DNA of 64,000 nt, from positions 5,852 through 69,851 of the forward strand of contig JAVEYY010000021.1 of the NCBI GenBank assembly GCA_034003245.1. Reading direction: 5' to 3'. How positions within the stretch are numbered: position 1 is the first letter of the stretch; every line of letters starts with the position of its first letter. Positions 37,760 through 54,040 of this stretch are shown here, piece after piece. The position numbers and the translations under genes are program-made. This DNA is from Tenuifilaceae bacterium. GTDB taxonomy: Bacteria; Bacteroidota; Bacteroidia; Bacteroidales; Tenuifilaceae. The notes under the pieces are model-generated. The model was not told where the DNA came from. It saw nothing but the letters and a program-made list of their open reading frames with translations, and made no database searches.

Positions 37760-40156
37760 TTAGTGAAAAAATAGCCTTTTATACCAAGGTCTCTGTACTG
37801 TGTGTTCTTGCTTTTGGCGTTCTTTTTTATCGAAAAATATTTTATAGGAAAACGAGGGGATAATTGGAAAGTAACTTTTTTGATAAAGCCCTAACTCTTG
37901 GCTTTCGCTATCTGACATGGCAGACTTTTCGAGGTAAAAATAAAAGTAAGGGTTTTGGCGGTTATAGGCGTTGTATACAGAGAAAGTCCACTGAGAATTG
38001 TAGCCATTACGCGTATGAGTATTATACTGCAAACCAAGATCGAGACGATGATAATTACGCATACGCGCACTGTTACGTTCTCCGTAAAGTAAAACTTCAT
38101 ATCCATCAAGGTCATTGGGAGTGGAACTTCTTATATAAGGGGCTTTGTGCCTACCTATAACTGGGGTAAAAGGTAGTCCTGTTTGGAAAACCCAGCTGGC
38201 TGTAAGCTGCATTTTTTTAGTAAGTTTACGAATTAAGCTAACTGTTGCCGAGTGAGGCCTATCGTATTCAAAAAGATACTCAATACCATTATTTATCTCG
38301 CTAAACTGGCGAGTTGTGTGCGACCATGTATAGCCAATAAAGCCCAACCAGTTGCCGTAGTTTTTCCTAACCAGCACCTCTAACCCTATGGCTTTACCCT
38401 TTCCTCCGGTTACCACTTTGTTACGCCAAAACCCATCGCCCATAAGGTTGGTGTATCCCTCGCGATAGTTAGCAAGGTTGCTAAGGTTTTTGCTGTAAAT
38501 GCTTGTTTCAGCATCAAACATTCCGTTAGCAAAGTTCCCTTTCCACCCCACTGCTAGCTGAGAGGTACTAGCATTTGGAATATCGGCACCCGCTGGCACC
38601 CACACCTCGTTGCTATTCACTTCGCCCGATGTAAAGAGTAGATGCGAGTGCTGGGAAGCCTGCATATAACTACAATTGAACTTGTTGTTTGAGTTAAGTT
38701 TAACGTCGAGGCTAAGCCGGGGCTCAAGCCCAATATGCGAGAAGCCATTGTTAGCAAAAACCACACTTCGCACCCCCGCCTGTAGTTCAAAAACACTTAG
38801 AAACTTAATATGATTCTTAAGATATAAAGCCGATTCGGTTGAGGTTATTGTAGGCTCACCAAAAATTTCGGTTTGCGTTGAGCTAACCATAGTGTTTGGG
38901 CTATGTAAAAGCAGTGTTGCTTGCATACCAGCATGTAAAGTCCAATTGGGTAGCAACTCGAATCGCCAACCCGATTTGAACGACATATCCTGTACCGATG
39001 AGCGAAACCTCATACTCTGAGAAATAGTATCGTTAAGAGATAAAATTGAGAATTGATTATTCTGACCTAGCCTATAACGAACGTAGGAAAGACTTTGGTT
39101 TGAGTATAGCTTTGGGGAATGCACCCTGTTCCAATGAGCCGACACCATCCAGTTACCCCAAATATTCCTCATATTAGAAAACTGCTGATTCTGGGAACTG
39201 GTGTAAGTGTTCTTAACACTCAAATAATCGTCGCCATGATAAACGTTTAAACTAAAAGAGTTCATGCCATTTGGCCGCCAAGTAAACTTACCATTTATAT
39301 CATGAAAGCCATAGTAAAATTTATATTCACCATTATCAACAAGGCTAGTTGCCAAAAGCATAAGCGGATCGGTAAGGGTTTTTCGGCCCGTAACAATAAA
39401 TGTTGAATTGGCAATTGGAGTAGGCCCCTCAATACTGGCCGATATATCGGTAAGCCCTAGGCTAAGGGTGCCCTTGGTATAGGCTGGATTTCCTTCACGC
39501 TGCGATATATCCATTATGGCAGAGAGTTTGCCACCGTACTTAGCCGGAAAACCACCTTTGTACACATCTATACTATTAATCATATCGGGATTAAAAACCG
39601 ACATGAACCCGCCAAAGTGGTTTACGTATATTAGGGCAACGTTATCGAGCAGGTAAAGGTTCTCGCCGGGGTTTCCGCCCCTAACCAACACCAAACTCGA
39701 CCCCTCGCTTTGTGTCTGTATTCCGGGCAGCAGCTGAATGGCTTTCATCACATCAGGTTTTGCCCCAAGAGATGGAACCGACTGAAACTCGAGCTGGCTA
39801 AGAGTAGCCACATTAAAAGGTGGACGCCGAGTATGGTTTATCACCACTTCATCAATCTGATTACCGGGGCATAACAAAACCTCAACAAGCGTATCGTTCT
39901 TAAAATCAACCTTAAGCTTTTTAGTCGTATAACCAACGTATGACATCGTAATAGCGCCCCTACCCATTGGGATGATGCTAAAGTAGCCTTTGGCATTGGC
40001 AATGGCGGCTCGGCTAGTACCATCCTCAACTACATGTGCGCCAACTAGCACCTCTCGCGATATACTATCGCGGATAAATCCGGATATTCGCACCTGAGAA
40101 TACAAACTACCGCTAGATATCAGTAGCGCAACAAGCAGAAGTTTAATGTAACGCAT
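37760..40156 (-). CDS. TonB-dependent receptor 1 (CarboxypepD_reg-like N-domain + plug + barrel)
   Basis: 798 aa. Signal peptide, ISGFIRDSISREVLVGAHVV...GYFSI regulatory domain, plug block PSLGAKPDVMKAIQLLPGIQ...VRGGNPGENLYLLDN, and a long beta-rich barrel whose terminal strand is PSFSYKIFF. That strand is followed by a 23-aa basic tail. Confidence 0.85.
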   Translation of the reverse strand: MRYIKLLLVALLISSGSLYSQVRISGFIRDSISREVLVGAHVVEDGTSRAAIANAKGYFSIIPMGRGAITMSYVGYTTKKLKVDFKNDTLVEVLLCPGNQIDEVVINHTRRPPFNVATLSQLEFQSVPSLGAKPDVMKAIQLLPGIQTQSEGSSLVLVRGGNPGENLYLLDNVALIYVNHFGGFMSVFNPDMINSIDVYKGGFPAKYGGKLSAIMDISQREGNPAYTKGTLSLGLTDISASIEGPTPIANSTFIVTGRKTLTDPLMLLATSLVDNGEYKFYYGFHDINGKFTWRPNGMNSFSLNVYHGDDYLSVKNTYTSSQNQQFSNMRNIWGNWMVSAHWNRVHSPKLYSNQSLSYVRYRLGQNNQFSILSLNDTISQSMRFRSSVQDMSFKSGWRFELLPNWTLHAGMQATLLLHSPNTMVSSTQTEIFGEPTITSTESALYLKNHIKFLSVFELQAGVRSVVFANNGFSHIGLEPRLSLDVKLNSNNKFNCSYMQASQHSHLLFTSGEVNSNEVWVPAGADIPNASTSQLAVGWKGNFANGMFDAETSIYSKNLSNLANYREGYTNLMGDGFWRNKVVTGGKGKAIGLEVLVRKNYGNWLGFIGYTWSHTTRQFSEINNGIEYLFEYDRPHSATVSLIRKLTKKMQLTASWVFQTGLPFTPVIGRHKAPYIRSSTPNDLDGYEVLLYGERNSARMRNYHRLDLGLQYNTHTRNGYNSQWTFSVYNAYNRQNPYFYFYLEKSAMSDSESQELGLYQKSYFPIIPSFSYKIFFDKKERQKQEHTVQRPWYKRLFFH

Positions 40157-40202
40157 TCTTTATACAATAAGCAATTAATTACAATACGGTTTTGGCTGCA
40201 TT

Positions 40203-41063
40203 CTATTGTGGAGAAATGGTATCGGAAACCGCCTTGGAGTATCCGACAAAAATGCCGCAACCTCCCTTTACGTTTGAATAAAGCGGGATTGCAGGTAAAG
40301 CACCCGTAAAAAAATCGGGGTATAGCGCATCGGTATAAAGCGAGAGCTGCTTTTTATAGCTATAGTAATGCTTGCATACCGAGCGTAGCTCAACAACAAT
40401 TGGAGTATCGTCCTCAATTTGGAGGTTAATATGCATAGTGTAGGTATCTGTAGGCACAAACTCTGTACTAAAAAGGATCAAATCAAGCCCCTCGCTAAGG
40501 AGCACAGGGTCATTAATATTAGCGGGATTAATGCGCCTTTCACTATCGCTCCATACAACAACCTCAAGATATCTTGTATCGTGCTTACTAAAAGTAACCT
40601 CAACTGCATTTTGTAAATCGCCCCAGTAGTTAAACCAAGCGTTCTTAATAAACTTAACGTTCTCTATGGGTGCAGCCAAGGGAACAACGGTTGTCGCCGT
40701 AACCAGATCGTAGCCTGGGACGTTTACCTCGCATTTATACTCGTTTCCCTCCTGCGCTTCGGTAGACGAGTTGTATAAACCTTTGCTTGTATGCTCAAGG
40801 GTTTCGAGCAGATGACCATTTTCATACAAATGCACTTGGGCATTGGTTACATCGGTTAGCTGAGCCGAGTCGATACTACCCGACAACGAAATATGCACCC
40901 ACACCGGTTTTCCTGCTTCAACTATTCCACTGATAGTTGGTTTGGGGGGATGACTGGGAAATTCCCAATCTACCTCTTTCTCGCATGAGGGCATGGTAAC
41001 AACCAATACAAAATAGACAAATATACAGGCAAGTAAGTAATATAAAGGCTTAGTGCTATTCAT
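40203..41063 (-). CDS. DUF4249-like lipoprotein (partner of TonB-dependent receptor 1)
   Basis: 286 aa. Lipobox TMPSC and the C-terminal SNVKGGCGIFVGYS motif characteristic of DUF4249. Sits directly upstream of a CarboxypepD_reg-type receptor. Confidence 0.65.
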   Translation of the reverse strand: MNSTKPLYYLLACIFVYFVLVVTMPSCEKEVDWEFPSHPPKPTISGIVEAGKPVWVHISLSGSIDSAQLTDVTNAQVHLYENGHLLETLEHTSKGLYNSSTEAQEGNEYKCEVNVPGYDLVTATTVVPLAAPIENVKFIKNAWFNYWGDLQNAVEVTFSKHDTRYLEVVVWSDSERRINPANINDPVLLSEGLDLILFSTEFVPTDTYTMHINLQIEDDTPIVVELRSVCKHYYSYKKQLSLYTDALYPDFFTGALPAIPLYSNVKGGCGIFVGYSKAVSDTISPQ

Positions 41064-41072
41064 ATATGAATA

Positions 41073-41657
41073 TTAAAACTTAACCGTTAAACCGTACCTT
41101 AGGCAAGACTCTATGTTATACTCTTCAGGCCGATTATTAAATCCATACTCAACAAAAGCGCCCCAGTATGGGGTAATGTAATAACTAAGCCCTCCGTAAA
41201 GTCCGTAATCGGCCCCATGCCCTTTGTAAACGCTACCCTCAGGTGCTGCCAGGCTAAGACCTCCAAATTTTGCTGATAAATACACATCAAATCGAGGTTC
41301 GGCACTATTGGCAATAAGAGGTAAAAGGTGAAAATTGGCAGTAATACCATAAGTGAATGCATTGGAGTATATAAAAGTGCCCGGGGATATTTGATTATTT
41401 GAAGATTCAGTCTCCTCGGTATTTAAAAAATTAACAAATCTACTATACCCCAGGTAGCCTCCAAACTCAAAAAAATTTGTACCGCCATAAGTCGCTTCTA
41501 ACCTAAAATTGCCCAGCGAAAGATTATAGTCTGATTGCAAATACTTTGGCGTGATACTGTGGCCAAATTTTAAGTTATTGCGCTTGCAAAGGTAATTCTC
41601 CTGTGCTTGAGTTAGGTTTACAGTCAAGATTATCAAAACAAATGTGAAAAACTTCAT
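41073..41657 (-). CDS. Small outer-membrane beta-barrel protein (paralog family of three)
   Basis: 194 aa. Signal peptide ...LTQAQ, alternating beta pattern, NFHLLPL motif and a C-terminal ...YGLTVKF beta-signal. Confidence 0.6.
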   Translation of the reverse strand: MKFFTFVLIILTVNLTQAQENYLCKRNNLKFGHSITPKYLQSDYNLSLGNFRLEATYGGTNFFEFGGYLGYSRFVNFLNTEETESSNNQISPGTFIYSNAFTYGITANFHLLPLIANSAEPRFDVYLSAKFGGLSLAAPEGSVYKGHGADYGLYGGLSYYITPYWGAFVEYGFNNRPEEYNIESCLRYGLTVKF

Positions 41658-42114
41658 ATTATATTTTACTTAGTTAATTTGTTACGTTAAAGATAAGAAG
41701 TAAAGAGGCATTTCTAATTCAATTAAATAATAAGCACTTAAACAATGCCTCTTTAAACTATTAATTATTCAAGTAGATGGGGATTAAAAGTTCTCTCCGC
41801 AACTACCTGTCCTCTATGGTTTTTACCCCACATATCATAAGCCAGAATTGTCTGATTGGGTTGGCCTCACCTCCCTGAGTGATTTAGCAGTTGTTCTATG
41901 GGGGTGGGGCATTTTTGGGGCCAGTTTTTATAAGGGTTCATTTGACCTCCCTCCTTTATTTGCTTTAGGGCTAAGGTTATCCCTGTATCAAGTAGTTTAC
42001 CCTATAATTCCGGGGCGGTATCAACCCCGTCATTTGGTCAATTGCCTTGCAACAACCTATGATTAAGCGTTATAATATTTTTTCCTTGCAAGTAAATATA
42101 TATTAGGTGTATTT

Positions 42115-42190
42115 TTACACGTGTAAATGTAGACAAACATAATATTTACAAGTGACATTACCCCCCCCCTATAGATTATGTTATATAACA
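42115..42190 (-). promoter_or_regulatory. Candidate promoter of cassette 1: palindrome, G9 tract, 19 nt, TAnnTTTG, TTACACGTGTAA palindrome
   Basis: Read on the minus strand: TGTTATATAACA (42179-42190), G9 (42161-42169), a 19-nt spacer, TATGTTTG (42134-42141), then TTACACGTGTAA (42115-42126). Confidence 0.55.
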
Positions 42191-42197
42191 CATCTCA

Positions 42198-42225
42198 CTT
42201 TCAGAGGGAGAGTCTCCCCTCAAAG
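42198..42225 (-). terminator. Imperfect GC hairpin just downstream of EamA copy A
   Basis: CTTTGAGGGGAGACTCTCCCTCTGAAAG on the minus strand. No U-run follows. Confidence 0.35.
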
Positions 42226-42270
42226 CACATAAACGATCTAGAAAGGATTAGTAATTAGATGGCTTAGGGT

Positions 42271-43107
42271 CTATAGCCCTCGCCTACGAATATTCCAGTT
42301 TAGGATTGCCAGCGATAGTCCCACCAAAACCATGCCCAGTATGGCAATTAGCGTGGGGTGCTCGTTGGATAAAATTAGCCAACTAAGCACGGCACCTAGC
42401 ACAGGAATTATAAATTTCCACATGTTAAGGGTTGATAACTTTACACCCGGACGCTTTAATAATGTGTACCATATTGATATAGCTGCAGCCGAAAGAAAAC
42501 TTAGCCAGCCCAACGAGAGCCAGTACTCGAGCGGGAATGGCCCTGAATGAAAATTTTCGGTTATCAACCCTAATACAAAAAGCATGGCTCCGCCAAATAT
42601 CATGGAGAACGAGCTTAGCACCAGCGGTGGAATATGACGCTTATCCTTAGCAACCAACATATTCCCAAATCCCGACAGCAGGTTATTGGCAATTAGGATA
42701 AGAATCCCCACGCTCACCATGGTTCCAGCTGCACCCATCTGCTTGCGGCCAAGGCTAATTATTACAATGCCCAGCAAGCCCACCAGAATACTTGCCACCT
42801 TGCGGCTATTTAGCGTATCGCCAGGCATAAAGAAATGGGCAACAATGGCAATGAAAAGTGGCCCGGAACCAATAATCATAGCGCCCAGCGCTCCGGGAAC
42901 CATATCAACGCCTTTGTAAAACAGGGCGTACTGCAGAAAGGTTTGCACAAAACCCACAAGCAATATCTTGGGAATGTTTAGTTTGGCAACGATAAGTTTT
43001 GCCCGTAAGTCGGGAATAAAGGGAATAATAAGTAGTCCCGACAGGAAAAAGCGAATCCCTGCAAACTGAAAGGGTGTCGTATATTTTAGGCCAATCTTAA
43101 TGCCCAC
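42271..43107 (-). CDS. EamA/DMT-family permease, copy A (5' end disrupted relative to copy B)
   Basis: 278 aa from a GTG start, near-identical to residues 26-303 of copy B. A 5-nt deletion and a TTG-to-TTA change remove the copy-B start, and no ATG/GTG/TTG lies upstream in frame. Confidence 0.6.
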   Translation of the reverse strand: MGIKIGLKYTTPFQFAGIRFFLSGLLIIPFIPDLRAKLIVAKLNIPKILLVGFVQTFLQYALFYKGVDMVPGALGAMIIGSGPLFIAIVAHFFMPGDTLNSRKVASILVGLLGIVIISLGRKQMGAAGTMVSVGILILIANNLLSGFGNMLVAKDKRHIPPLVLSSFSMIFGGAMLFVLGLITENFHSGPFPLEYWLSLGWLSFLSAAAISIWYTLLKRPGVKLSTLNMWKFIIPVLGAVLSWLILSNEHPTLIAILGMVLVGLSLAILNWNIRRRGL

Positions 43108-43236
43108 AAAAGCTGTTGACCACAGTATGCAAGCAACAATGGCGAGGAAAATGGTTGAGAAATGTTTTAATTTTAAAGATGTGGTACCATTAAGTTTGAA
43201 ACCACGTTTTTTGGGGTGGTTATTATAATATTCACA

Positions 43237-43267
43237 GGGTTACTATCCGCTAAGCAGATAGCAACCC
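43237..43267 (-). terminator. Hairpin downstream of TonB-dependent receptor 2
   Basis: GGGTTGCTATC...GATAGTAACCC on the minus strand (one G-U pair). Weak U-tail. Confidence 0.4.
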
Positions 43268-43308
43268 CATAAGTAAAGAGAAGAATTATTCAATATTAAA
43301 CTTCAGCA

Positions 43309-45789
43309 TTACTCATCAAAATACATCCAGTTTCTCCCTCTCCCTTGCTCCTTCCTTTGTTCTTTTCGCTCCTGCTTTCTTTTTGATTTTATCTGGCGGA
43401 AGGCCTTAATATCATCAAAAAAGACCTTGTACGAAATGGTGGGGAGAATAGGGAAAAAACTCAACTGGTAAAGAGAGTAAGGTTCTGCGTCATTAAAACC
43501 TAATTGTGGAATACGAGTATTGTACTGTTCAGTATCGTGCGTAAACATATAGCTGTAAGGATTTTGCCTGTTGTAGGCATTGTACACGGCAAATGTCCAC
43601 TGCGCCTTGTTCCCATACTTGGTTTGGGTTGTGTAATTTAGCGCTAAATCGAGGCGATGGTAAAATCGCATACGCTCGCTATTCCTCTCTCCATAAATAA
43701 ATGCCTCGTAGTAGTAGGTATCATCGCCCCGACTTGTTAGGCTTGGTACATAAGCCCTACCATAAACGGGCGTAAAGGGTAAACCCGACTGGAGCACCCA
43801 CGAAGCACTGAGTGACATCTTATCGCTAATTTTGTGATTAAGGGTAAGCGAAAGGTTATGCGGCCGATCGTAATCGAACAAATACTGCTTTCCATCATTT
43901 ATATTGGGATATTTACGAGTTGACTGCGACCAGCTATACCCCATGAAACCAGTCCAATTGCCCCGTGTTTTACGCACAAACAGCTCCACGCCATAGGCCT
44001 CGCCCTCGCCCCCTGCCTCTACCTTGTTGCGCCAATTGCCATCGCCCATTAGCGATGTGTACCCCTCGCGATAGGTGGCAATATTACGCAATGTTTTGTG
44101 ATATGCGCTCACCTCAACATCCCACATCCCCTTGCCAAAAAAGCCACGCCAGCCTGCTGCAACCTGCTGGGTTGATGCAGGGCTAATTCCATTCCCTGCC
44201 GGCACCCACACCTCGTTGCTCATTATTTCGCCCTGGGTAAATAGCAGGTGCGAGAATTGATTGGCCTTCATGTAGCTAGCGTTAAGGGTATGGTTAGCCC
44301 CTACATGGATGTTGAGGTTTGCCCTGGGCTCAATTTTAAATTTGCTGTACTGCTCCGATACGTATCCCGCAGCACGTGCCCCTATGCGCAATGAAAGTAT
44401 TTTGGGGAACTCTAGCTTGGCCTCGGAATATGCCGATGGTTCAAGCGTATTTATGGTAGGCTGACTAGTTGCTGCCGGATTGTTCGATATGTATATATTA
44501 TTGGGATTGTACCTAAGGTATGCAGTGTGAAGGCCAAAATCGACACCCAAATTTTCGTGAAATTCAGCTGTTAAATCCCACTTATAGGAGATGTCCTGTA
44601 CTATGGATTTAAAGTTTCGCTTAAACTCAAACTTTGAATCGGGGTCGGTGTTAGTATAATTCTGGTTATTTTTTAACCTATAGCGCACAAACGAAAGGCT
44701 TTGCGTAGAGTATAAACTAGGGCTGTGCACTCGGCTCCAACGGGCGGATAGCAACCAGTTTCCCCACACATTTGAGAGCCGTGCCCTTTCGCTACCCGAA
44801 TTACTGCGGTTATAGTACCACCAGTTTATGTAGTCATCGCCCTGATAAAGATTTACGCTTAGGGTGTTTTTTGTATCGGGTCGCCAAGTAAATTTCCCAT
44901 TAACATCATGAAAACCGTACGACAGTATATAATCGCCTCCACCCGAAATCTTACTGGCTAATGCAAGTAATGGGTCAACCAGCGTTTTTCGACCAGCAAC
45001 AATAAAGGTTGAATTTTTTATTGGGGTGGGTCCTTCAAGCAGAAAAGAGGCATCGGTTATGCCAATGCTGTATGCTCCCTTTAGTTTGTTAACATTACCC
45101 TGACGTTGGGCAATATCCATAATTGACGACAGCTTGCCTCCGTAACAGGATGGAAATCCGCCCTTATACACCTTAATGTTATTAATAATATCGGAATTAA
45201 AAACCGAGGTAAATCCGCCCAAATGGTTTACATAAATTAGCGCAATATTATCGAACAGGTAAAGGTTCTCGCCCGGATTGCCACCACGCACCAGAATGGT
45301 GCTTGAGCCCTCGTTCTGCGACTGTATGCCGGGGAGCAGCTGAATGGCCTTCATCACATCGGGCTTTGCCCCCAGCGAGGGCAGCTGCTGCAGCTCCAGG
45401 TTGCTAAGCGATGCCACGCTATGTGTATGTCGCTTGGTATGGGTTACCACCACCTCGTCGATACTATTCTGTGGGTGCAAGAGTATAGTTACGAGCGAAT
45501 CGGTTGGCGTATTAAGGTTTATTGCCACTGGCTTATAGCCAACAAATGATACTGTTAGCTTGCTGTTAGCCTGCACATTGATGCTGAAATAGCCAGTGTT
45601 ATCGGTGGGGACTACCCGCATACGGGTGCTATCAACTATATGTGCTCCCACCAGCACCTCGCGCGTGAGGCTATCGCGGACAAATCCGGCAATACGCTGC
45701 TGAGCAACCACAGAAAAGTTTACGCTACAAAGTAATGCTGATGCTATGAGGTATTTAAAAATCTTCACAATGCTTACCATTTGGGTCAA
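43309..45789 (-). CDS. TonB-dependent receptor 2 (close paralog of receptor 1)
   Basis: 826 aa. Shares long identical runs with receptor 1 (PSLGAKPDVMKAIQLLPGIQ, VRGGNPGENLYL). The terminal strand PTISYKVFF is followed by a 35-aa Lys/Arg/Glu-rich tail. Confidence 0.85.
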   Translation of the reverse strand: MTQMVSIVKIFKYLIASALLCSVNFSVVAQQRIAGFVRDSLTREVLVGAHIVDSTRMRVVPTDNTGYFSINVQANSKLTVSFVGYKPVAINLNTPTDSLVTILLHPQNSIDEVVVTHTKRHTHSVASLSNLELQQLPSLGAKPDVMKAIQLLPGIQSQNEGSSTILVRGGNPGENLYLFDNIALIYVNHLGGFTSVFNSDIINNIKVYKGGFPSCYGGKLSSIMDIAQRQGNVNKLKGAYSIGITDASFLLEGPTPIKNSTFIVAGRKTLVDPLLALASKISGGGDYILSYGFHDVNGKFTWRPDTKNTLSVNLYQGDDYINWWYYNRSNSGSERARLSNVWGNWLLSARWSRVHSPSLYSTQSLSFVRYRLKNNQNYTNTDPDSKFEFKRNFKSIVQDISYKWDLTAEFHENLGVDFGLHTAYLRYNPNNIYISNNPAATSQPTINTLEPSAYSEAKLEFPKILSLRIGARAAGYVSEQYSKFKIEPRANLNIHVGANHTLNASYMKANQFSHLLFTQGEIMSNEVWVPAGNGISPASTQQVAAGWRGFFGKGMWDVEVSAYHKTLRNIATYREGYTSLMGDGNWRNKVEAGGEGEAYGVELFVRKTRGNWTGFMGYSWSQSTRKYPNINDGKQYLFDYDRPHNLSLTLNHKISDKMSLSASWVLQSGLPFTPVYGRAYVPSLTSRGDDTYYYEAFIYGERNSERMRFYHRLDLALNYTTQTKYGNKAQWTFAVYNAYNRQNPYSYMFTHDTEQYNTRIPQLGFNDAEPYSLYQLSFFPILPTISYKVFFDDIKAFRQIKSKRKQERKEQRKEQGRGRNWMYFDE

Positions 45790-46693
45790 TAATTTCCGAT
45801 TTTACCGATGAGTACCCTGTCAGTATCCCGTAGCCATTCTGCACGTTGCTATAGAGATTATAACTACCCGTTACTCCAACCGATAGTAGTGGCTCGCTGG
45901 TTGCCACCTCGTACAGGTACTGCTGCTTTATAAACTTGTAGTAGCTATGGCAAATGGTACGCAGCTCAACCTGTACTGGGAAAAGATTGGTTACCCAACC
46001 AGCATTATTATGGTTTGAGGCGCTGCCCGTTGAGTAATTAATGGTCATGGTGTAGGTGCTACCCTCAATTAGCTCGTTGCTAAACACGGCCATGGGCAAG
46101 CCCTCGTTAAGCAGAACAGGGTCAACAATGTAGAATGGATCAGCACTACCTTTATAATTTTCGCCATTAAAAAGCCTAATAACCACCTCGTAGTAAACGG
46201 TTGTATCGGGTAAATTATCGAAAGTTACCTTAACGGCAGGATAGGTTAACCCCTCCTCATCGACCCCAGCCATATTAATATGTTCAAATTCTACTATGTT
46301 CTGATGCTTGGGAATAACCGTAGAGCATGTGGCTGTTGGGTAGCCGGGTATAGTAACCTCGCAGCGGTACTCGCTATCCTCCTGCGCAACGAGCTCCGAT
46401 TGGTAAAGCCCATCGCCAATGTATTCAAGCGTTTCGGCATACTCGTTGTTAACGTATAGCAGCACTTCAGCGTTATCTACAGCGGGGGTGGGCTCGGCAG
46501 TAAATTTTACTGCAGTTGAAACCATTATGGAAACATGGCTTCCACTCTTAATAACGCCATTAACAACGGGCTTTTGCTCAAATTCGGGTGGGTTCCAGTC
46601 GAGCTTTTTGTGGCAGCTATTGAAAAGAAACACAAAAACCAAGGAAAACCCTACAACACCTCGTATTCCCTTGTTATCAAAACTTATAAGCAT
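45755..46693 (-). CDS. DUF4249-like lipoprotein (partner of receptor 2)
   Basis: 312 aa. Lipobox LFNSC and C-terminal SNVQNGYGILTGYS. Overlaps the receptor start by ~35 nt. Confidence 0.65.
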   Translation of the reverse strand: MLISFDNKGIRGVVGFSLVFVFLFNSCHKKLDWNPPEFEQKPVVNGVIKSGSHVSIMVSTAVKFTAEPTPAVDNAEVLLYVNNEYAETLEYIGDGLYQSELVAQEDSEYRCEVTIPGYPTATCSTVIPKHQNIVEFEHINMAGVDEEGLTYPAVKVTFDNLPDTTVYYEVVIRLFNGENYKGSADPFYIVDPVLLNEGLPMAVFSNELIEGSTYTMTINYSTGSASNHNNAGWVTNLFPVQVELRTICHSYYKFIKQQYLYEVATSEPLLSVGVTGSYNLYSNVQNGYGILTGYSSVKSEIIDPNGKHCEDF

Positions 46694-46703
46694 ACGTTAT
46701 ATT

Positions 46704-47246
46704 TTAAAACTTAAATGATAAACCGTACCTGAGATTTGTATAGCTACCATATCCAAACTCACCATAAACACCAAAATGACGAGTAAAGTAATATGCCGCT
46801 CCTGCGTAAACCCCGTAATCGGAGAAGTACTTATGAGGCAGGGGTGAAAAGTTTTTTCTTTCGGGATTAATACCCCCAAGTTTCCCCGAAACATAAAGGT
46901 CAAACCGTACTTTTTTCTCCTTAACAATTAGTGGCAGAATATGAAAATTAGCATTCAGCCCATAGTTAGTAGCTGCGTAACCTGATATTGTCATACCTGT
47001 GGTTGTCCCAATATTTTCTCTTTTTATATCTTGATAGAAACCAAACCCTGCGTAAACACCAACCTCAATAAAAGGAACTATTTTATAGTTAACCTCACCC
47101 CTAAAGTTTGGGAGGTTATTGTGTGTGTCCTCTGGGTTACTAAGGGAAAAACCCAACTTAGCGTTAATCCTTTTGGGCACGGTATTAACCTGAGCAAAGG
47201 TGTTAATTGATATTAGCAACGAGGCTAAAAGCAAAAGTCTTTTCAT
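46704..47246 (-). CDS. Small outer-membrane beta-barrel protein
   Basis: 180 aa. Signal peptide ...NTFAQ, NFHILPL motif, C-terminal YGLSFKF. Confidence 0.6.
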   Translation of the reverse strand: MKRLLLLASLLISINTFAQVNTVPKRINAKLGFSLSNPEDTHNNLPNFRGEVNYKIVPFIEVGVYAGFGFYQDIKRENIGTTTGMTISGYAATNYGLNANFHILPLIVKEKKVRFDLYVSGKLGGINPERKNFSPLPHKYFSDYGVYAGAAYYFTRHFGVYGEFGYGSYTNLRYGLSFKF

Positions 47247-47263
47247 TTGTTTAATTTTATTTT

Positions 47264-47845
47264 TTAAAACTTTACAACAAACCCATACCTTAAGTTGGGT
47301 TCACTATCGGAAAAATTCACCTTTTTACTTACTCCATACTCAACGTAAACGCCCCAATTCTTGGCAATAAAATAGTTAACACCACCAAGCAAGCCATAGT
47401 CGAACACAGTCCCTTTGTAAAGGCTATTGGCTGGAGCTATCATAGAAATCATTCCCAACTTAGCGCCAACATATAAGTCGATGCGCACTCTTCCTTCTCT
47501 TATTACAAATGGAAGGATATGAAAATTGGTGTTTAACCCATAAAACAAAGCATTGGATTTGTAGGGCGAGCTAAATGTGGTGGGTGTGCTTGGACTTAAA
47601 GGGCCTTCAATATTTTTAAAATTACTATACCCTAAATACAGACCTGGTTCAATAAAATTAAAAAGTACGTAGTTCGCTTCAAACCTTACATTTCCAAATG
47701 CAATATTGTCGCTAAAATCCCAAAACTTTGGGGTGTTTGAGTGACCTAGTTTAAGCGACAACCTCTCGTTAAGAGAGGTGTTTTGGGAAAAACCTATCGC
47801 TGTAAACGTTAGGAAAAACGTTACCAATAAATTAATCTTACTCAT
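47264..47845 (-). CDS. Small outer-membrane beta-barrel protein
   Basis: 193 aa. Signal peptide ...IGFSQ, NFHILPF motif, C-terminal YGFVVKF. Confidence 0.6.
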   Translation of the reverse strand: MSKINLLVTFFLTFTAIGFSQNTSLNERLSLKLGHSNTPKFWDFSDNIAFGNVRFEANYVLFNFIEPGLYLGYSNFKNIEGPLSPSTPTTFSSPYKSNALFYGLNTNFHILPFVIREGRVRIDLYVGAKLGMISMIAPANSLYKGTVFDYGLLGGVNYFIAKNWGVYVEYGVSKKVNFSDSEPNLRYGFVVKF

Positions 47846-48070
47846 AATCTATTTTTAGTTTTACTATTGATATTGAAAAAACCAATGCCGTACAATTAAC
47901 TTCATATGTCATTTGCCTTTAGAAAATAAGCCATTCTACGTATTTGGCTACCACGCATAAGGACACATCAGCCTGCTGGCAAAGACAGGTGAGTAGTTAT
48001 ATAATGAATTCAATAAATGCTTTTGATTGTTTTAGATATTATTTTGTGATTAGCAATGTATTCTTGTAAA

Positions 48071-48127
48071 CAAAACTAGCACTTTATACCAATTTTACCC
48101 CCCCCGTATTTATGTGTTATAAAACAC
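48071..48127 (-). promoter_or_regulatory. Candidate promoter of cassette 2: inverted repeat, G8 tract, 19 nt, TAnnTTTG
   Basis: Read on the minus strand: GTGTTTTATAACAC (48114-48127), G8 (48098-48105), a 19-nt spacer, TAGTTTTG (48071-48078). Confidence 0.55.
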
Positions 48128-48215
48128 ACCAAATACCACAAAAAGAATGAACACGCAACAGAAAAACACCTCACTATGGCAAAGGATTACAGCTGATGGT
48201 TTGCAGCGGGTTGAT

Positions 48216-48256
48216 GAGAGAAAAATCCTGACAGGTTTTAGAAACCTGTCAGGATT
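48216..48256 (-). terminator. Strong rho-independent terminator (minus strand)
   Basis: Perfect 14-15 bp stem AATCCTGACAGGTTT / AAACCTGTCAGGATT with a 3-nt loop, followed on the minus strand by UUUUUCUCUC. Confidence 0.85.
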
Positions 48257-48557
48257 GGCATGCTGCAGCCTCCGGTTAGTAACACTTGCTAATGATAGAC
48301 CAGTTCTGGTGCAACCTACCTTTGACAGGTAAACCTGAGCCGAACGTGGAGTAGCAAGAACTTTACCGAGCAGATGAATATCAGGGCTAAAGCCCATTTT
48401 ACTACAGGTTTTTCCCCTGCCCTAAAGGACAGGGTTATTGGCAGCCACTGCCTATTTACAATTTCAGATTCCTAGTTGGGTTAAGGGCTGTACCTCTGCA
48501 GAACGAAACAGTCCGTGTGCGACTTTAAGTTGCGCCCGGACTTATGCTCAAACCAAC
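48257..48557 (-). ncRNA. Candidate structured RNA or structured 3' UTR downstream of receptor 3 (family unknown)
   Basis: GC-rich for an intergenic region. It has several local hairpins (48510-48542, 48440-48452, 48414-48434, 48384-48395) and ends at the terminator above. The 48414-48434 stem is perfect only as minus-strand RNA (G-U versus C-A). Confidence 0.35.
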
Positions 48558-50912
48558 CTAAAACTTAAAAGTATAGCTAATTGAGGGCATAATTGGGAAA
48601 AGGCTAAAACGATATAACTTGGGTGTATCGTTGTGATATCGTGTAAAATAAAAATAGGGGTTCTTCCTATTGTAAATATTAATGATGCTAAAATCCCAGA
48701 CGCCAACCCAACCCTTATGGTATTTGGTATGTGATATTCCTATATCGGCTCGATGGTATGAACGATCGCGATAGTTGTTAACGCCATCGTAAATAAAAAC
48801 AAAGTTACCCTCGTTATCTTTATACTGCTCAGACGGCAAGCTGTAGGGCAAACCCGTACCAAAAACCCAGGTAAAGGTAAGGCTTAATCTCTCGTTAAGC
48901 TGCTGGTTGTATAGCAACGACAAATTTACCAACCTATCGTACCTAAATGGGAATTCATTGCCGCTGTTAATATCTTTAAACTGTCTACCGGCTTTGGAAA
49001 CCCCAATGCTTACCCAACCCGTTGATGAGCCTTTTAGCTTTTGCAACATCAGCTCAACACCCATTGCACTCCCCTTACCATTGGTGGCTAGTACTTTGGC
49101 AAGGTCGTTCCCCAAAACGTACGACACCCCCTCCTTTAGGTCGGCTAAATTGGAGAGTTTTTTATGGTAAGCCTCTAGGGTTACTTCGTAAAACCCATCG
49201 TAAGCCACATGGTTAAGTCCTAACGACCAAATTTTGCTTGCAGAGGGTGGTGCAAATGCTCCAGCAGGTATCCGATAATCTGTTGGCATACCTGCGCTAT
49301 TGTTTGAGACCAAATGGAAGTGCTGATGCATAACGGAGTACGACCCCTTTAAAGAGGTGTTGCTAGTAATTTTTCTGGACACAAGTATCCGAGGCTCAAT
49401 AAAATTGAATACCTCATCGGTATAGATAAGCTTTTGCGCACGCACCCCAATATTTAAACCAAATCCGTAGTAGTTGCTAAGTATAAACTCACCGTACGCA
49501 CTTGGGCTTAAGGCGCTACCAGAGGTGTAGCCTGTAGCAGCTGGCGCAACCTCACTAGCACCATCGGCCACCTGCTTTATGGTAGTTTGCCCAGGGTTAT
49601 ACCGATGCGAAACAAGGGCGCAACCCAAAAGTATGGTAACCTTATTGCTGACTCTGTAATTGTAATTTATGTTCAAAAAATCATCCCTAACGTTCGATTT
49701 AAAAGATGATTCTACTTCATAGTTCCCAAGGGTTTTAACATCGATATTAGACAGCTCTGAGTACGTGTACGCGGTTGTGCCAACCGTAATGTTCAAGTAG
49801 TTTCGGCTGTTAACAATACGATTAAACCTTAACGCTGCTCCCAAATTACCCCACTGGTTGGTAAGCGATGAGCTTACCGATTCATCGTCCTTGGTTTTCA
49901 CACCCAGCTTATCGTTGCCATTATAAAAGCTAAAGTATAGGCGGCTCTTTTCGGAAATGTGAGTATTTAGTTTTACGTTCATATCGTACATGCTATAGTT
50001 CTCATCAACCTTAAAAATCCAACGTAAAAAGGGAATGGTATTTTTCCGAAGCGATACCAAATAGCCTGCCCTGCCTTTAACAATTGGGCCATGAGCTAAA
50101 ACTTTAGATGTAAGCATTCCCAAGGTAATGCTTTGCCTGTGCTCAGCCATATCGCCATCGAGAGTATGCACATCAACAACTGCCGATAGCCGCCCTCCGT
50201 AGCGAGCGGGGAAAGCACCAACGTAAAATGTTGCATCCTTTACAATATCGGAATTAAAGGTAGAGGTAAAACCACCAAGGTGCGTTACGTGGTACAGGGG
50301 CAACTCATCTAAAAGGAATAGGTTTTGGTCATGGCTGCCTCCCCTAACGTACAAATTACTGTTGCCATCGCCTGCAAGTTGCGTTGCAGGTGCAAGCTGA
50401 TAGTATAGCAGCATATCCTTTTCACCGGCAAAAGATGGCAACCCTGCTAGCTGCCTTGGATTAAGCCTAAATACAGACATCTCTGGCTTTAGCGCGCTCT
50501 TTTTGGAGAAAACCTTAACCTCTCCTATTGAATGGGCCGATGAGGTTAGCTGAATATTGGCAACCTGCTCTTTATGCGGTAAGGTAACTTGCAAAGGAGA
50601 ATACCCTATGTGCGAGAAATAAACATCAACAGAATCCATTCCTTGGGAAAGCCATAACGTGAAATGGCCATAGGCATTAGTTGTTGTGCCTTGCCCCGTT
50701 TTGATGTTTACCACTGAGGCTCCTACAAGCACCTCTTTACTATGAGCATCAATTACGGTACCCGATACAGAAACATTTCTGCTCTGGCTTAAGCCCGTAA
50801 TTGGTTTTACAACTGCCGATAAAAGAACAATCACAACAATTAACCCTGATATTATTGAAGCATTGATGCTAAGTAGTTTCATAAGATTACTAATCGATAG
50901 TTCTAGAGGCAA
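48558..50912 (-). CDS. TonB-dependent receptor 3 (divergent paralog)
   Basis: 784 aa. CarboxypepD_reg-like VSGTVIDAHSKEVLVGASVV, plug block YVRGGSHDQNLFLLDE, and it ends exactly at the beta-signal PSISYTFKF. The start may be the Met at 50882. Confidence 0.85.
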   Translation of the reverse strand: MPLELSISNLMKLLSINASIISGLIVVIVLLSAVVKPITGLSQSRNVSVSGTVIDAHSKEVLVGASVVNIKTGQGTTTNAYGHFTLWLSQGMDSVDVYFSHIGYSPLQVTLPHKEQVANIQLTSSAHSIGEVKVFSKKSALKPEMSVFRLNPRQLAGLPSFAGEKDMLLYYQLAPATQLAGDGNSNLYVRGGSHDQNLFLLDELPLYHVTHLGGFTSTFNSDIVKDATFYVGAFPARYGGRLSAVVDVHTLDGDMAEHRQSITLGMLTSKVLAHGPIVKGRAGYLVSLRKNTIPFLRWIFKVDENYSMYDMNVKLNTHISEKSRLYFSFYNGNDKLGVKTKDDESVSSSLTNQWGNLGAALRFNRIVNSRNYLNITVGTTAYTYSELSNIDVKTLGNYEVESSFKSNVRDDFLNINYNYRVSNKVTILLGCALVSHRYNPGQTTIKQVADGASEVAPAATGYTSGSALSPSAYGEFILSNYYGFGLNIGVRAQKLIYTDEVFNFIEPRILVSRKITSNTSLKGSYSVMHQHFHLVSNNSAGMPTDYRIPAGAFAPPSASKIWSLGLNHVAYDGFYEVTLEAYHKKLSNLADLKEGVSYVLGNDLAKVLATNGKGSAMGVELMLQKLKGSSTGWVSIGVSKAGRQFKDINSGNEFPFRYDRLVNLSLLYNQQLNERLSLTFTWVFGTGLPYSLPSEQYKDNEGNFVFIYDGVNNYRDRSYHRADIGISHTKYHKGWVGVWDFSIINIYNRKNPYFYFTRYHNDTPKLYRFSLFPIMPSISYTFKF

Positions 50913-51858
50913 TATGCATTACAGTATCTACCTTTGCATAACCAGCAAAAATGCCATACCCGCCAACAATATTCGACATAACAGCAACCGGCGGAGCAAT
51001 GCCATACAAAAAATCGCCCTCAACGGCATACATCTGCGTGTATTTTGATGTTTTATAATGAAAATATGCCTTTGAAACGGCACGTAGCTCAACCCTCAGG
51101 TAATGCTCGGGGAACTGGTATCCAGTAAGGGGATTCCAGGAACTTGATGTTTCGTACATAAAATCGACTAGGGCTTCCTGCTGATTTTCGTCAAACCTAA
51201 AAAGTAAGGTTTCCGGATATCCGCTCCCTATAAGCATTAGGTCGGGGTAATAGGTTTCGCGGGTAATTAGCGGGTGGTTCGACTTTAAGGGCGTGGTTGA
51301 GCTGTAAAACTCCAAATCATCGTCATCATCCCAAATCTCGGCAAGATAAAGAGCCACTTCAAAGTATTGACTTTGTGTTACTTCATTTATCGATTTTATG
51401 GAAATACTTACCTGGTTATAAAAATCGTTACCAATAGGTTGCACCGAGGCATCTACTATTAAGGCTGGGTAAGGAATGGTATCGGTAGCAAATGCCTCAA
51501 CATCTCCAGTAGAATTGTACAGTTCTATCCTGTATATACCACCAGACTCATACTCTAATTCGTTTGTTGTAAAAGTGATGTAATCAAAATTATAATTTGG
51601 GGTAAGCGCATACTCATACCCGCTAGTCACATTGGTTATACTAGCGTTAAAATCATCAATTTTGCTAATTGAGGTGGAGTAGGCAGGCTGAGTATGCGTT
51701 ACGTAAACATATGGATTTTTATGCGATACAGTATATGAGCTAATTACAATACTGGGTTTATGCAATACAGATTCAACTTCAACAAGCTCTTCGCATCCCA
51801 CAAAAATTAGCAGCATACACAATAGTAGAATTCTCATTTTAATCGGACTACAACACAC
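50890..51858 (-). CDS. DUF4249-like lipoprotein (partner of receptor 3)
   Basis: 322 aa. Lipobox IFVGC (likely start at the Met at 51837) and C-terminal SNIVGGYGIFAGYA motif. Confidence 0.6.
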   Translation of the reverse strand: MCCSPIKMRILLLCMLLIFVGCEELVEVESVLHKPSIVISSYTVSHKNPYVYVTHTQPAYSTSISKIDDFNASITNVTSGYEYALTPNYNFDYITFTTNELEYESGGIYRIELYNSTGDVEAFATDTIPYPALIVDASVQPIGNDFYNQVSISIKSINEVTQSQYFEVALYLAEIWDDDDDLEFYSSTTPLKSNHPLITRETYYPDLMLIGSGYPETLLFRFDENQQEALVDFMYETSSSWNPLTGYQFPEHYLRVELRAVSKAYFHYKTSKYTQMYAVEGDFLYGIAPPVAVMSNIVGGYGIFAGYAKVDTVMHIASRTID

Positions 51859-51924
51859 CTAGGATTATACTTTTACTAACGATGAGGAAAGGTACTTTAG
51901 TGTACCCTTCCTCAACACTAAGGG

Positions 51925-52686
51925 TTACCAAACAATTGGATTATTGCTCTCCCTAATTTCAAAATTTGAATAGGTATTGGTGTATAACATAACTCCAAGT
52001 CTGTAATATCCAGCTGCACATAGAGGATGCTCCATCTCCCATTCAAAGTTAATGTGACCTTGTTGCCAATTCCACTTTTCATCACAGTGCCATCTGCACA
52101 ACCAACATTTTGTATAACCCCATTTAAAGATAAAACCTGATGGATCGTTGTCAACTGGAAAATATTTCAAGCCAAGGTATTTGCGTTTTATTTTTGCTTT
52201 GTATCCAATGAAATACTGGTCTGGTGGCCATGGGTCTAGACTTTTTGCTGTAATTTCAGCCTTAAATGAAACCACAAATTCTTCTGATTCGTATTCCTCA
52301 GGCATACTTAAAATTTCAATGAAAACTTGAGGCAAATTATCAGTTATATAAACATTTTCATTAAATTGATTATTGGCTGTTGGGATAGAAACAACAGATG
52401 AAAACTCACCTTTATCCTTTAATGGTGTTAAACTAAGCGAAAAAGCATTTGTAAACCCATATAGGGAGACAGAGTCGCTAGATGACAATAGAAAACTAAC
52501 CTTGTTCTTTTTATCATTTAATGAAACATCAACTGTATCGGTAAAGATAAAACATTCATCCTCGATATTGTTAGCAGAGGTAACATAACTGGGTTTGATA
52601 CCACTCTTTTGGCATGAAGATGAAATCAGCAGCAAAATAAGAATACATAATAAACTTACACTTGCACAACTTTTAATTTTAATCAT
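51925..52686 (-). CDS. Hypothetical lipoprotein with a Cys/Trp-rich C-terminus
   Basis: The track ORF extends to 52773, but that extension lies in the duplicated non-coding leader. MIKIKSCASVSLLCILILLLISSSC at 52686 is a proper lipoprotein signal. Confidence 0.55.
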   Translation of the reverse strand: MIKIKSCASVSLLCILILLLISSSCQKSGIKPSYVTSANNIEDECFIFTDTVDVSLNDKKNKVSFLLSSSDSVSLYGFTNAFSLSLTPLKDKGEFSSVVSIPTANNQFNENVYITDNLPQVFIEILSMPEEYESEEFVVSFKAEITAKSLDPWPPDQYFIGYKAKIKRKYLGLKYFPVDNDPSGFIFKWGYTKCWLCRWHCDEKWNWQQGHINFEWEMEHPLCAAGYYRLGVMLYTNTYSNFEIRESNNPIVW

Positions 52687-52975
52687 CGTAATAAGTTTTA
52701 ATTCGACTTTAATTAGTTGAGTTGGCCTCACCTCCCAGAGTGATTTAGCAGTTGTTCTATGGGGGTGGGGCATTTTTTTAGCCAGTTTTTATAAGGGTTC
52801 ATTTGACCTCCCTCCTTAATTTGTTACAGGACTAAGGTTATCCCTGTATCAAGTAGTTTACCCTATAATTTCGGGGCGGTATCAACTCCGTCATTTGGTC
52901 AATTGCCTTGCAACAACCTATGATTATGCATTATAATATTTTTTCCTTATATGTAAATATATATTAGGTGTATTT

Positions 52976-53048
52976 TTACACGTGTAAATGTAGACAAACA
53001 TAATATTTACAAGTGACATTACCCCCCCAGAGATTATGTTATATAACA
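52976..53048 (-). promoter_or_regulatory. Candidate promoter of cassette 3: palindrome, G7 tract, 19 nt, TAnnTTTG, TTACACGTGTAA palindrome
   Basis: Read on the minus strand: TGTTATATAACA (53037-53048), G7 (53022-53028), a 19-nt spacer, TATGTTTG (52995-53002), then TTACACGTGTAA (52976-52987). Confidence 0.55.
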
Positions 53049-53055
53049 CATCTCG

Positions 53056-53083
53056 CTTTCAGAGGGAGAGTCTCCCCTCAAAG
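53056..53083 (-). terminator. Imperfect GC hairpin just downstream of EamA copy B
   Basis: Same element as 42198-42225. Confidence 0.35.
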
Positions 53084-53128
53084 CACATAAACGATCTAGA
53101 AAGGATTGGTAATTAGATGGCTTAGGGT

Positions 53129-54040
53129 CTATAACCCCCGCTTACGAATATTCCAATTTAGGATTACTAGCGATAGTCCCACCAAAACCATGCCCAGTAT
53201 GGCAATTAGCGTGGGGTGCTCGTTGGGTAAAATTAGCCAGCTTAGCACGGCACCAAGCACGGGAATTATAAATTTCCACATGTTAAGGGTTGATAGTTTT
53301 ACACCTGGACGCTTTAATAATGTGTACCAAATTGATATGGCTGCAGCCGACAGGAAGCTAAGCCAGCCCAACGATAACCAGTATTCTAGAGGGAATGGCC
53401 CTGAATGAAAGTTTTCGGTTATCACACCTAAAACAAAAAGCATGGCTCCGCCAAAAATCATGGAGAACGAGCTGAGCACCAGCGGCGGAATATGGCGATT
53501 GTCGTTAGCAACCAGCATATTCCCAAAACCAGCCAATAAATTATTGGCAATCAGGATTAGAATACCTATGCTTACCATGGTTCCAACAGCGCCCATCTGC
53601 TTTCGTCCAAGGCTAATTATTGTAATACCCAGCAATCCCACAAGAATACTTGCAATCTTGCGGCGGTTAAGCATGTCGCCAGGCATAAAGAAATGGGCAA
53701 CAATGGCTATGAAAAGTGGCCCAGAACCAATAATCATAGCGCCCAGCGCACCGGGAACCATATCTACTCCTCTGTAAAAAAGAGCATACTGCAGAAAGGT
53801 TTGCACAAAACCCACAAGCAATATCTTAGAAATGTTTTGCTTGGCAACCATAAGTTTTGCACGTAAATCGGGAATAAAGGGAATAATAAGTAGTCCCGAC
53901 AGGAAAAAACGAATACCCGCAAACTGAAAGGGTGAGGTGTATTTTAGGCCAATCTTAATGCCCACAAATGCGGTTGACCAAAGTATGCAAGCAACAATGG
54001 CGAGGAAAATGGTTGAGCTAAGAAATGTTTTAATTTTCAA
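53129..54040 (-). CDS. EamA/DMT-family permease, copy B (full length)
   Basis: 303 aa (TTG start), about 10 TM helices, with two EamA-like halves. Confidence 0.85.
   Translation of the reverse strand: MKIKTFLSSTIFLAIVACILWSTAFVGIKIGLKYTSPFQFAGIRFFLSGLLIIPFIPDLRAKLMVAKQNISKILLVGFVQTFLQYALFYRGVDMVPGALGAMIIGSGPLFIAIVAHFFMPGDMLNRRKIASILVGLLGITIISLGRKQMGAVGTMVSIGILILIANNLLAGFGNMLVANDNRHIPPLVLSSFSMIFGGAMLFVLGVITENFHSGPFPLEYWLSLGWLSFLSAAAISIWYTLLKRPGVKLSTLNMWKFIIPVLGAVLSWLILPNEHPTLIAILGMVLVGLSLVILNWNIRKRGL

Follow-up and report, generated by a model that had tools for sequence, protein, structure and literature searches.

Poly-G tracts of variable length at the predicted -33 position of outer-membrane transporter promoters in Tenuifilaceae and related Bacteroidales

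In a stretch of 64,000 nucleotides (nt) from a Tenuifilaceae bacterium (GCA_034003245.1, contig JAVEYY010000021.1, forward strand 5,852-69,851; hereafter, the window), three outer-membrane transporter gene clusters, namely cassettes 1, 2, and 3 (c1, c2, and c3), each have a predicted promoter with a run of 7 to 9 G residues. Our comparisons with near-identical contigs from other samples and with homologous loci in other genomes indicate that this tract is a hypermutable repeat, and that it is selectively maintained in uninterrupted form. Its repeat length, its position in the promoter, its polymorphism between strains, and the surface-protein class of the genes downstream are features of a simple-sequence-repeat (SSR) contingency locus, and we lean slightly toward the view that tract length modulates expression of the cassettes.

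All three promoters lie on the minus strand, where the coordinates, strings, and spacings given in an earlier note on this DNA were found to be correct for c1, c2, and c3 (Table 1). At c1, 9 nt lie between the palindrome TGTTATATAACA and the G9 tract, and ATCTATA lies between its extended form TGTGTTATATAACATA and the tract. The palindrome reads TGTGT-N6-ACACA at c2 and TGTGT-N6-ACATA at c1 and c3, is similar to the CRP/FNR site TGTGA-N6-TCACA, and occurs in the window only at the three promoters. Likewise, each cassette has a single TAnnTTTG on the gene strand of its intergenic region (TATGTTTG, TAGTTTTG, and TATGTTTG, respectively). Primary-sigma promoters of Bacteroidota carry TAnnTTTG at -7 and TTTG near -33 (PMC7366714, PMC2483708), and we infer promoters and start sites from these boxes as predicted -7 elements. 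The proposal that the tract sits where the -33 element should be is borne out, as its last G is 19 nt from TAnnTTTG, a position that matches the -33 TTTG of Bacteroidota promoters (PMC7366714) and the TTTG of a tRNA promoter in the window, which lies 20 nt upstream of its -7 box TATATTTG. A canonical -33 TTTG/TTG (19-21 nt upstream of the -7 box) is absent; GGGG stands in its place, with the last G alone matching.

The earlier note had further stated that this architecture recurs at the other two cassettes. This holds insofar as c2 and c3 carry it; the second palindrome is missing in c2, and the recurrence is not independent. More specifically, two segments of ~1.3 kb that include an EamA/DMT transporter gene, the promoter, and ~280 nt of leader are 91% identical between c1 and c3, and c2 is a diverged paralogue that has the promoter and the first ~70 nt of the leader in common with homologues in other genomes and is missing the remaining leader. 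The sequence relationships thus indicate that the three window promoters are paralogous copies of one module, not three independent events. The second palindrome, TTACACGTGTAA, was considered as an operator and found to have no support: it is confined to c1 and c3, is missing from c2 and every other type of module, and is broken in contig L005 (TTTGCACGTGTAA; contigs and loci from other samples and genomes are given as L numbers). Motif counts in the window are at chance level, with 7 matches to G7 versus 6.7 expected from shuffles and 67 matches to TAnnTTTG versus 64 expected, so that it is from conservation and polymorphism in other genomes, and not from these counts, that the arrangement derives its significance.

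Near-identical contigs from other samples were recovered by exact-protein look-ups, and their consensus sequences were compared. The earlier note had suggested comparing tract lengths among close strains, with invariance as an outcome that would refute its phase-variation proposal; at the between-sample level invariance was not seen, as tract length differed in five of seven orthologous groups, with three of the polymorphic groups belonging to other species. At c3, the tract is G7 in the window, G9 in L003, and G8 in L004 (4 and 9 mismatches in 4.3 and 4.2 kb, respectively, with the tract as sole indel), and at c1 it is G9 in the window and G7 in L005, where the flank differs too (ATCTATA versus ATCTCT). 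Similarly, L018 has G7 and L020-L023 have G8 (99.6-99.7% identity over 7 kb), one copy in L006 (L006a) has G8 and L024 has G9 (98.9% identity over a 455-nt alignment), and L031 and L032 both carry A8G7 at the position of A10G9 in L033, this being the sole indel in 3.9 kb. Equal lengths were observed for c2 (G8 in the window, L001, and L002; 0-2 mismatches, no indel) and for L013 and L025 (G8 in both; ~97% identity over part of the region). Over 2-7 kb at an identity of at least 98.8%, there were no more than three indels, the tract being one of them and in some cases the only one. Length changes affected G/C runs of at least 6 in 7 of 9 comparisons versus A/T runs of at least 6 in 1 of 63 (Fisher p = 2e-7), the single changed A/T run being an A run that abuts a G tract. 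Exact-protein look-ups found neither the c1 small outer-membrane protein (OMP) nor the c3 lipoprotein (282- and 254-amino-acid [aa] versions) on record, and no tract is covered by the contigs that carry a 99%-identical protein or distant homologues of the lipoprotein, all of which stop within the leader or short of it.

Homologous loci were sought with a small-OMP alignment search of one genome per species, a set to which the window's own species did not belong, and this search yielded 12 loci from uncultured Bacteroidales, Tenuifilaceae metagenome-assembled genomes (MAGs), and the cultured Perlabentimonas gracilis. Copies of the promoter module were then located by BLAST of the c1 upstream region, followed by a leader-motif scan of metagenomes, and the module was found in L006 (two copies), L009, L011, L012 (two copies), L013, L018-L025, and L031-L033. 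Its order is a palindrome TGTGTT-N4-AACAyA, an A/T spacer (~7 nt), the G run, the TAnnTTTG box, a ~300-nt leader with a strongly conserved ~200-nt core, and a lipoprotein gene. The same module heads homologous cassettes of TonB-dependent transporter (TBDT) and DUF4249 genes in P. gracilis and in several Bacteroidales MAGs, and P. gracilis M08_MB (L012) carries its two copies with tracts of G8 and G9 (at ~62.19 and ~55.71 kb of NZ_JAANIG010000004.1, respectively). Homology across species starts exactly at the palindrome. In every one of the at least 11 distinct copies of what we call type-A modules, the G run is uninterrupted, at G7-G11, and TAnnTTTG is kept in every homologous module. Mean pairwise identity across modules is 89% for the palindrome, 82% for the -7 box, and 71% for the 19-nt spacer (spacer minimum, 42%). 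In the 246 kb of DNA fetched, 26 of 27 G/C runs of at least 7 lie in promoter modules. The exact 19-nt distance between tract and box, claimed for all three window promoters, is indeed present there and in the six module types of the 19-nt class that were compared (window c1 and c3 counted as one); it does not extend to the relatives L006, L009, and L011, in which the distance is 23-24 nt and the run gives way to a TTG at 21 nt from the box. Because G7-G11 is unbroken in all copies while the neighbouring spacer is only 71% identical, we consider the tract to be under selection to remain an uninterrupted repeat.

As for the mechanism, the poly-G run would act as a simple-sequence contingency tract in which slipped-strand mispairing during replication adds or removes G:C pairs. 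With the 3' end of the run fixed at -33 and GGGG in place of TTTG, the core promoter is probably weak and factor-dependent. A change in run length would leave the -33 sequence and the -33/-7 distance as they are and move everything upstream, each G gained or lost shifting the palindrome and any bound regulator by 1 bp (~34 degrees) relative to RNA polymerase. Activation or repression would depend on the distance and helical phase of the palindrome-bound regulator, and output would differ by tract length, either on/off or in graded fashion. That each cassette is a separate transcription unit is plausible: a strong terminator (48253..48221) parts c3 from c2, and a hairpin follows each EamA gene copy. 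For these two reasons, the three cassettes could change expression independently of one another in a clonal population. Protein binding at the palindrome and an effect of the tract on transcription are what we infer from these sequences, and the specific mechanism, namely, phasing of a palindrome-bound regulator against RNA polymerase, appears to us possible and somewhat doubtful.

Several observations weigh against this account. The distance from palindrome to box is unconstrained across the family, as it amounts to 32-35 nt in the majority of copies but reaches 41-46 nt in L006, L009, and L011; within the range of 32-35 nt, we found no clear compensation between A/T spacer and tract length that would keep it constant. 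Two further promoters, designated type B (L007 1068-1120 and L009 3719-3775), have the same palindrome and a TACATTTG box together with G6 (L007) or the interrupted GGAGTAGG (L009) at 15 nt from the box, so that promoter function does not depend on a long run; type B may represent the switch in a decayed or "locked" state, or an ancestral G box, which may have a role of its own. The polymorphism comes from contig consensus sequences and so describes differences between samples, not switching within a population. Moreover, all three samples have G8 at c2, which is also the commonest length overall, suggesting that length change may be slow, and the c1 difference between the window and L005 includes flank changes, such that it could reflect gene conversion from c3 instead of slippage. 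Lastly, no Crp/Fnr-type regulator was detected among the 30 window open reading frames (ORFs) scanned, a gene that could lie anywhere in the genome. The internal promoter of L009 was also considered as an orthologue of c2; the alignment was limited to the common motifs, with no clear homology, and it was kept as a separate type B.

In two of the alternatives considered, the length differences are artefactual or the tract is incidental. The length differences might be sequencing or assembly errors, as homopolymers are error-prone on some platforms and every comparison uses assembled metagenome contigs. We nevertheless judge this very unlikely, given that 2-nt differences occur (G7 versus G9) in the output of four independent pipelines (Logan, MEGAHIT k141, JGI, NCBI MAGs), that 62 of 63 A/T runs of at least 6 agree in the same alignments, with almost no other indels, and that the same lengths recur in independent samples (G8 in L020-L023; G8 in L001, L002, and the window). 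The tract might instead be incidental to promoter switching by DNA inversion, as in the invertible promoters of Bacteroides; invertase-driven promoter inversion is the established phase-variation mechanism for Bacteroidales surface proteins, including SusC/D-type transporters (PMC11868660). However, the three promoters have no conserved flanking inverted repeats (weak 80-86% matches only, at non-equivalent positions), no recombinase gene beside them, and the same orientation in every contig, and we rejected inversion as exceedingly improbable.

The other two alternatives accept the tract as a promoter element and differ in what its length does. In one, the tract acts directly and independently of the palindrome, the G/C run at -33 altering the contact with sigma region 4 or the DNA geometry and so serving as a gradual rheostat. 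The run does occupy the -33 position itself, the widely varying palindrome-to-box distance is a poor fit to strict helical phasing, and the tracts of Neisseria meningitidis opc and Treponema pallidum tprL overlap core elements and act without a change in hexamer spacing (PMC7864442). Yet a change in length keeps GGG(G) at -33 and leaves the -33/-7 spacing intact, so that a structural argument would be needed, and the palindrome, the best-conserved part of the module, marks its upstream boundary; on balance, we regard direct action as unlikely. In the other, the run is a conserved G box for the promoter or for regulator binding, whose exact length is irrelevant and in which slippage is tolerated. 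This would agree with the modal G8 of many copies and the invariance of c2, with the short or interrupted G boxes at the same place in type-B promoters, which suggest an ancestral G-rich element, and with the free-living, anaerobic habit of these organisms, in which contingency loci are less expected. A sequence-specific site, however, needs no perfect homopolymer and should be interrupted by drift, whereas none of the at least 11 type-A modules is interrupted and their flanks are 29% divergent; in addition, all lengths are within the slippage-prone range of 7-11, and, in known systems, changes of 1-2 bp beside a core promoter seldom prove neutral (PMC7864442, PMC1891110). A neutral G box is accordingly improbable in our estimation.

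The cassettes bear out the expectation that the tracts precede surface-protein genes, as they encode TBDTs (~780-830 aa, with CarboxypepD_reg and Plug domains), DUF4249 lipoproteins, and small beta-barrel OMPs with signal peptides (Table 1). The first gene is a small beta-barrel OMP in c1 and c2 and a lipoprotein in c3; neither this first lipoprotein nor a 203-aa protein had a match in Pfam or NCBIfam. DUF4249 proteins have been proposed to be surface "lids" of non-SusC TBDTs (bioRxiv 10.1101/2023.03.17.533168). The interval from the c1 leader core to the start codon of the c1 OMP contains a perfect 12-bp inverted repeat, AATGCCTCTTTA/TAAAGAGGCATT, with a 31-nt loop and then a T-rich stretch (41701-41755, minus strand). 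It is possibly an attenuator or a leftover terminator, and c1 may consequently be only weakly coupled to its own G9 promoter. The statement that the three tracts are the only G/C runs of at least 7 in the window proved incorrect: a fourth G7 run exists at 61536-61542 on the plus strand, which a GT4 glycosyltransferase ORF (61014-62309, minus strand), adjoining a UDP-GlcNAc 2-epimerase gene, carries as C7 on its coding strand. A homopolymer at such a site is a classic setting for translational phase variation of a surface polysaccharide.

Table 1. Predicted promoter elements, leaders, genes, and duplicated segments of the three cassettes in the window
Feature	Position	Strand	Description
c1 palindrome	42190..42179, extended 42192..42177	-	TGTTATATAACA, extended 16-bp form TGTGTTATATAACATA; CRP/FNR-like 5-6-5 geometry; upstream limit of the module
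c1 poly-G	42161..42169	-	G9; hypermutable element
c1 -7 box (predicted)	42134..42141	-	TATGTTTG, 19 nt 3' of G9
c1 second palindrome	42115..42126	-	TTACACGTGTAA, 7 nt (TCTACAT) after TATGTTTG, near the expected start site
c2 palindrome	48113..48128	-	TGTGTTTTATAACACA
c2 poly-G	48098..48105	-	G8, 7 nt (TAAATAC) after TGTGTTTTATAACACA
c2 -7 box (predicted)	48071..48078	-	TAGTTTTG, 19 nt 3' of G8
c3 palindrome	53035..53050	-	Module layout as in c1
c3 poly-G	53022..53028	-	G7; upstream spacer 1 nt shorter than in c1
c3 -7 box (predicted)	52995..53002	-	TATGTTTG
c1 leader core	41856..42052	-	~200 nt, downstream of the c1 promoter
c3 leader core	52717..52913	-	Runs directly into the lipoprotein gene
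Cassette 1 genes	37760..41657	-	Small beta-barrel OMP 41073-41657, DUF4249 lipoprotein 40203-41063, TBDT 37760-40156
Cassette 2 genes	43309..47845	-	Small beta-barrel OMPs 47264-47845 and 46704-47246, DUF4249 45755-46693, TBDT 43309-45789
Cassette 3 genes	48558..52689	-	Lipoprotein 51925-52689 (ORF open from 52773), DUF4249 50890-51858, TBDT 48558-50912
Intrinsic terminator	48221..48253	-	15-bp perfect stem and T run, between c3 and c2
Duplication, copy 1	41856..43177	-	EamA', promoter module, leader
Duplication, copy 2	52717..54040	-	EamA, promoter module, leader

Downstream of the promoter, the leader core shows 76-84% identity among P. gracilis and a number of Bacteroidales MAGs (L006, L009, L011, L012, L013, L018-L025), a level that exceeds the conservation of the downstream coding sequence, and its first predicted hairpin shows two compensatory base-pair changes. 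An Rfam search with 470 nt of leader gave no match at gathering thresholds and only noise up to E 10. We regard the core as a candidate for an undescribed cis-regulatory RNA of cassettes pairing a TBDT with a lid. Within the conserved leader, an ORF starting from ATGCCCCACCCCC (MPHPHRTT.KSLWEVRPTQ...; 52689-52773, minus strand, in the window) shares its reading frame with the lipoprotein gene that follows in all copies, and this start is used by gene callers in at least one record (282 aa). Candidate readings of this ORF are an N-terminal extension, a leader peptide, or coincidence.

The three cassettes, which are diversified paralogues, form together with the second EamA copy an island (37760-53128) inserted between EamA and a TPR gene. 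In relatives that lack the island (L026-L030), EamA is followed directly by the TPR gene (window counterpart, 36437-37678), and the EamA protein of L030, which has no cassettes, is the same in sequence as that of the cassette-bearing L031-L033. This adjacency in close relatives and the identity of the L030 EamA indicate that the cassette array is a variable island, gained, lost, or expanded by recombination. One module copy of L006 (3330-3615) has a truncated leader core, after which comes an 85-aa C-terminal piece of a transposase-like ORF; this indicates mobile-element activity at these loci. In sample SRR29667957, the c3 leader appears to be interrupted between ...acaaatta and aggaggg, where L004 ends (4205-4249) and L034 begins (1-30) with imperfect inverted-repeat ends (attaatgggagctaaaaatagttag / cactaactattttatgcacctattaat); this suggests the insertion of an insertion sequence or a miniature inverted-repeat transposable element that parts the cassette from its promoter in that population. 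A second variable repeat in the cassette is the 11-nt tandem repeat GGCAAAGGCAG, present in 2, 3, or 4 copies in contigs of the L018 group that are otherwise 99.6-99.8% identical (L020 8355-8399; L018 4440-4462; L022 4654-4687; L023 2104-2137; L014 368-390). It lies ~100 nt upstream of a 180-aa OMP gene and beside a complementary CCTGCC-rich arm.

Homopolymer "contingency loci" are considered characteristic of pathogens that have small genomes and are adapted to a host (e.g., Neisseria, Haemophilus, Campylobacter, Helicobacter, Treponema, and Bordetella), and phase variation of Bacteroidales in the literature that we searched involves DNA invertases only. Our literature search found no report of SSR-based promoter switching in Bacteroidota, which is absence of evidence only; the tracts described here would accordingly be SSR contingency promoters in a phylum, and on a promoter architecture, for which the searched literature describes none. 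Taken together, it is a serious possibility, though one that we stop short of calling probable, that free-living Bacteroidales of the Tenuifilaceae group run a contingency system: an expandable TBDT-lid-OMP island with one poly-G switch per cassette at -33, read out by a CRP-like regulator, and with most cassettes also gated by the 200-nt leader RNA. Were this so, SSR-based promoter phase variation would have its first case in the phylum, in organisms other than host-adapted pathogens; contingency loci would extend to environmental anaerobes, and Bacteroidota would gain a second route to surface variation, one that needs no recombinase. Expression of alternative surface transporters would then be combinatorial, heritable, and reversible, allowing, for example, escape from phages that use them as receptors, and the tracts would serve as natural probes for the tolerance of the unusual -33/-7 promoter to upstream changes. 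The presence of the module in cultured P. gracilis M08_MB makes the idea directly testable. The tract-length signal would be lost wherever variant calling or a MAG pipeline "polishes" homopolymers.

One of the known systems is found in the same order, Bacteroidales, namely the invertible promoters of Bacteroides, by which invertases phase-vary capsules, SusC/D, and other surface proteins (PMC11868660). It operates on the same class of target gene and with the same presumed outcome of independent, stochastic expression of alternative surface systems; it depends on a recombinase and inverted repeats, whereas the loci described here have a homopolymer, with neither found beside it. In N. meningitidis, a poly-C tract spans the -35 element of opc and a poly-G tract lies between -35 and -10 of porA (as summarised in PMC7864442). 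These are likewise G:C homopolymers in promoters of outer-membrane proteins, and the opc tract replaces the upstream hexamer as the G run here replaces the -33 TTTG. In contrast, the porA tract changes the hexamer spacing, whereas the distance from the 3' end of our tract to the -7 box is fixed, and Neisseria is a host-adapted proteobacterium with many such loci. The fim2, fim3, and fimX promoters of Bordetella pertussis carry a C-stretch and a conserved "fim box," and the length of the stretch sets the transcript level (PMC1891110). There too, paralogous surface-structure genes share a conserved promoter module that holds a G:C homopolymer, polymorphic in length between strains and located in or upstream of the core promoter, where a regulator-dependent element flanks it on one side and the downstream promoter element on the other. 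At C7-C19, the tracts of Bordetella exceed ours in length, their activator, BvgA, is known, and the genes are fimbrial subunits without a conserved long leader, as opposed to the transporter operons described here.

The closest analogue is the tpr system of T. pallidum, in which the promoters of tprE/G/J, tprL, and tp0126 carry poly-G tracts of 7-11, the CRP homologue Tp0262 binds nearby, and tract length and the CRP homologue set transcription (PMC7864442). The two systems differ in phylum and in promoter type (sigma-70 -35/-10 in T. pallidum versus -33/-7 in Bacteroidota), in that the tprL tract overlaps the -10 region whereas ours is at -33, in that the effect on transcription was measured there and is predicted here, and in that T. 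pallidum is a host-restricted pathogen and ours are environmental organisms. In both, paralogous outer-membrane protein genes each have their own promoter poly-G of ~7-11, whose length is variable (among and within strains in T. pallidum, between samples here), and a CRP-type site lies upstream, acting jointly with the tract in T. pallidum and predicted here as a CRP-like palindrome; as in tprL, moreover, the tract leaves the spacing of the promoter hexamers unaltered.

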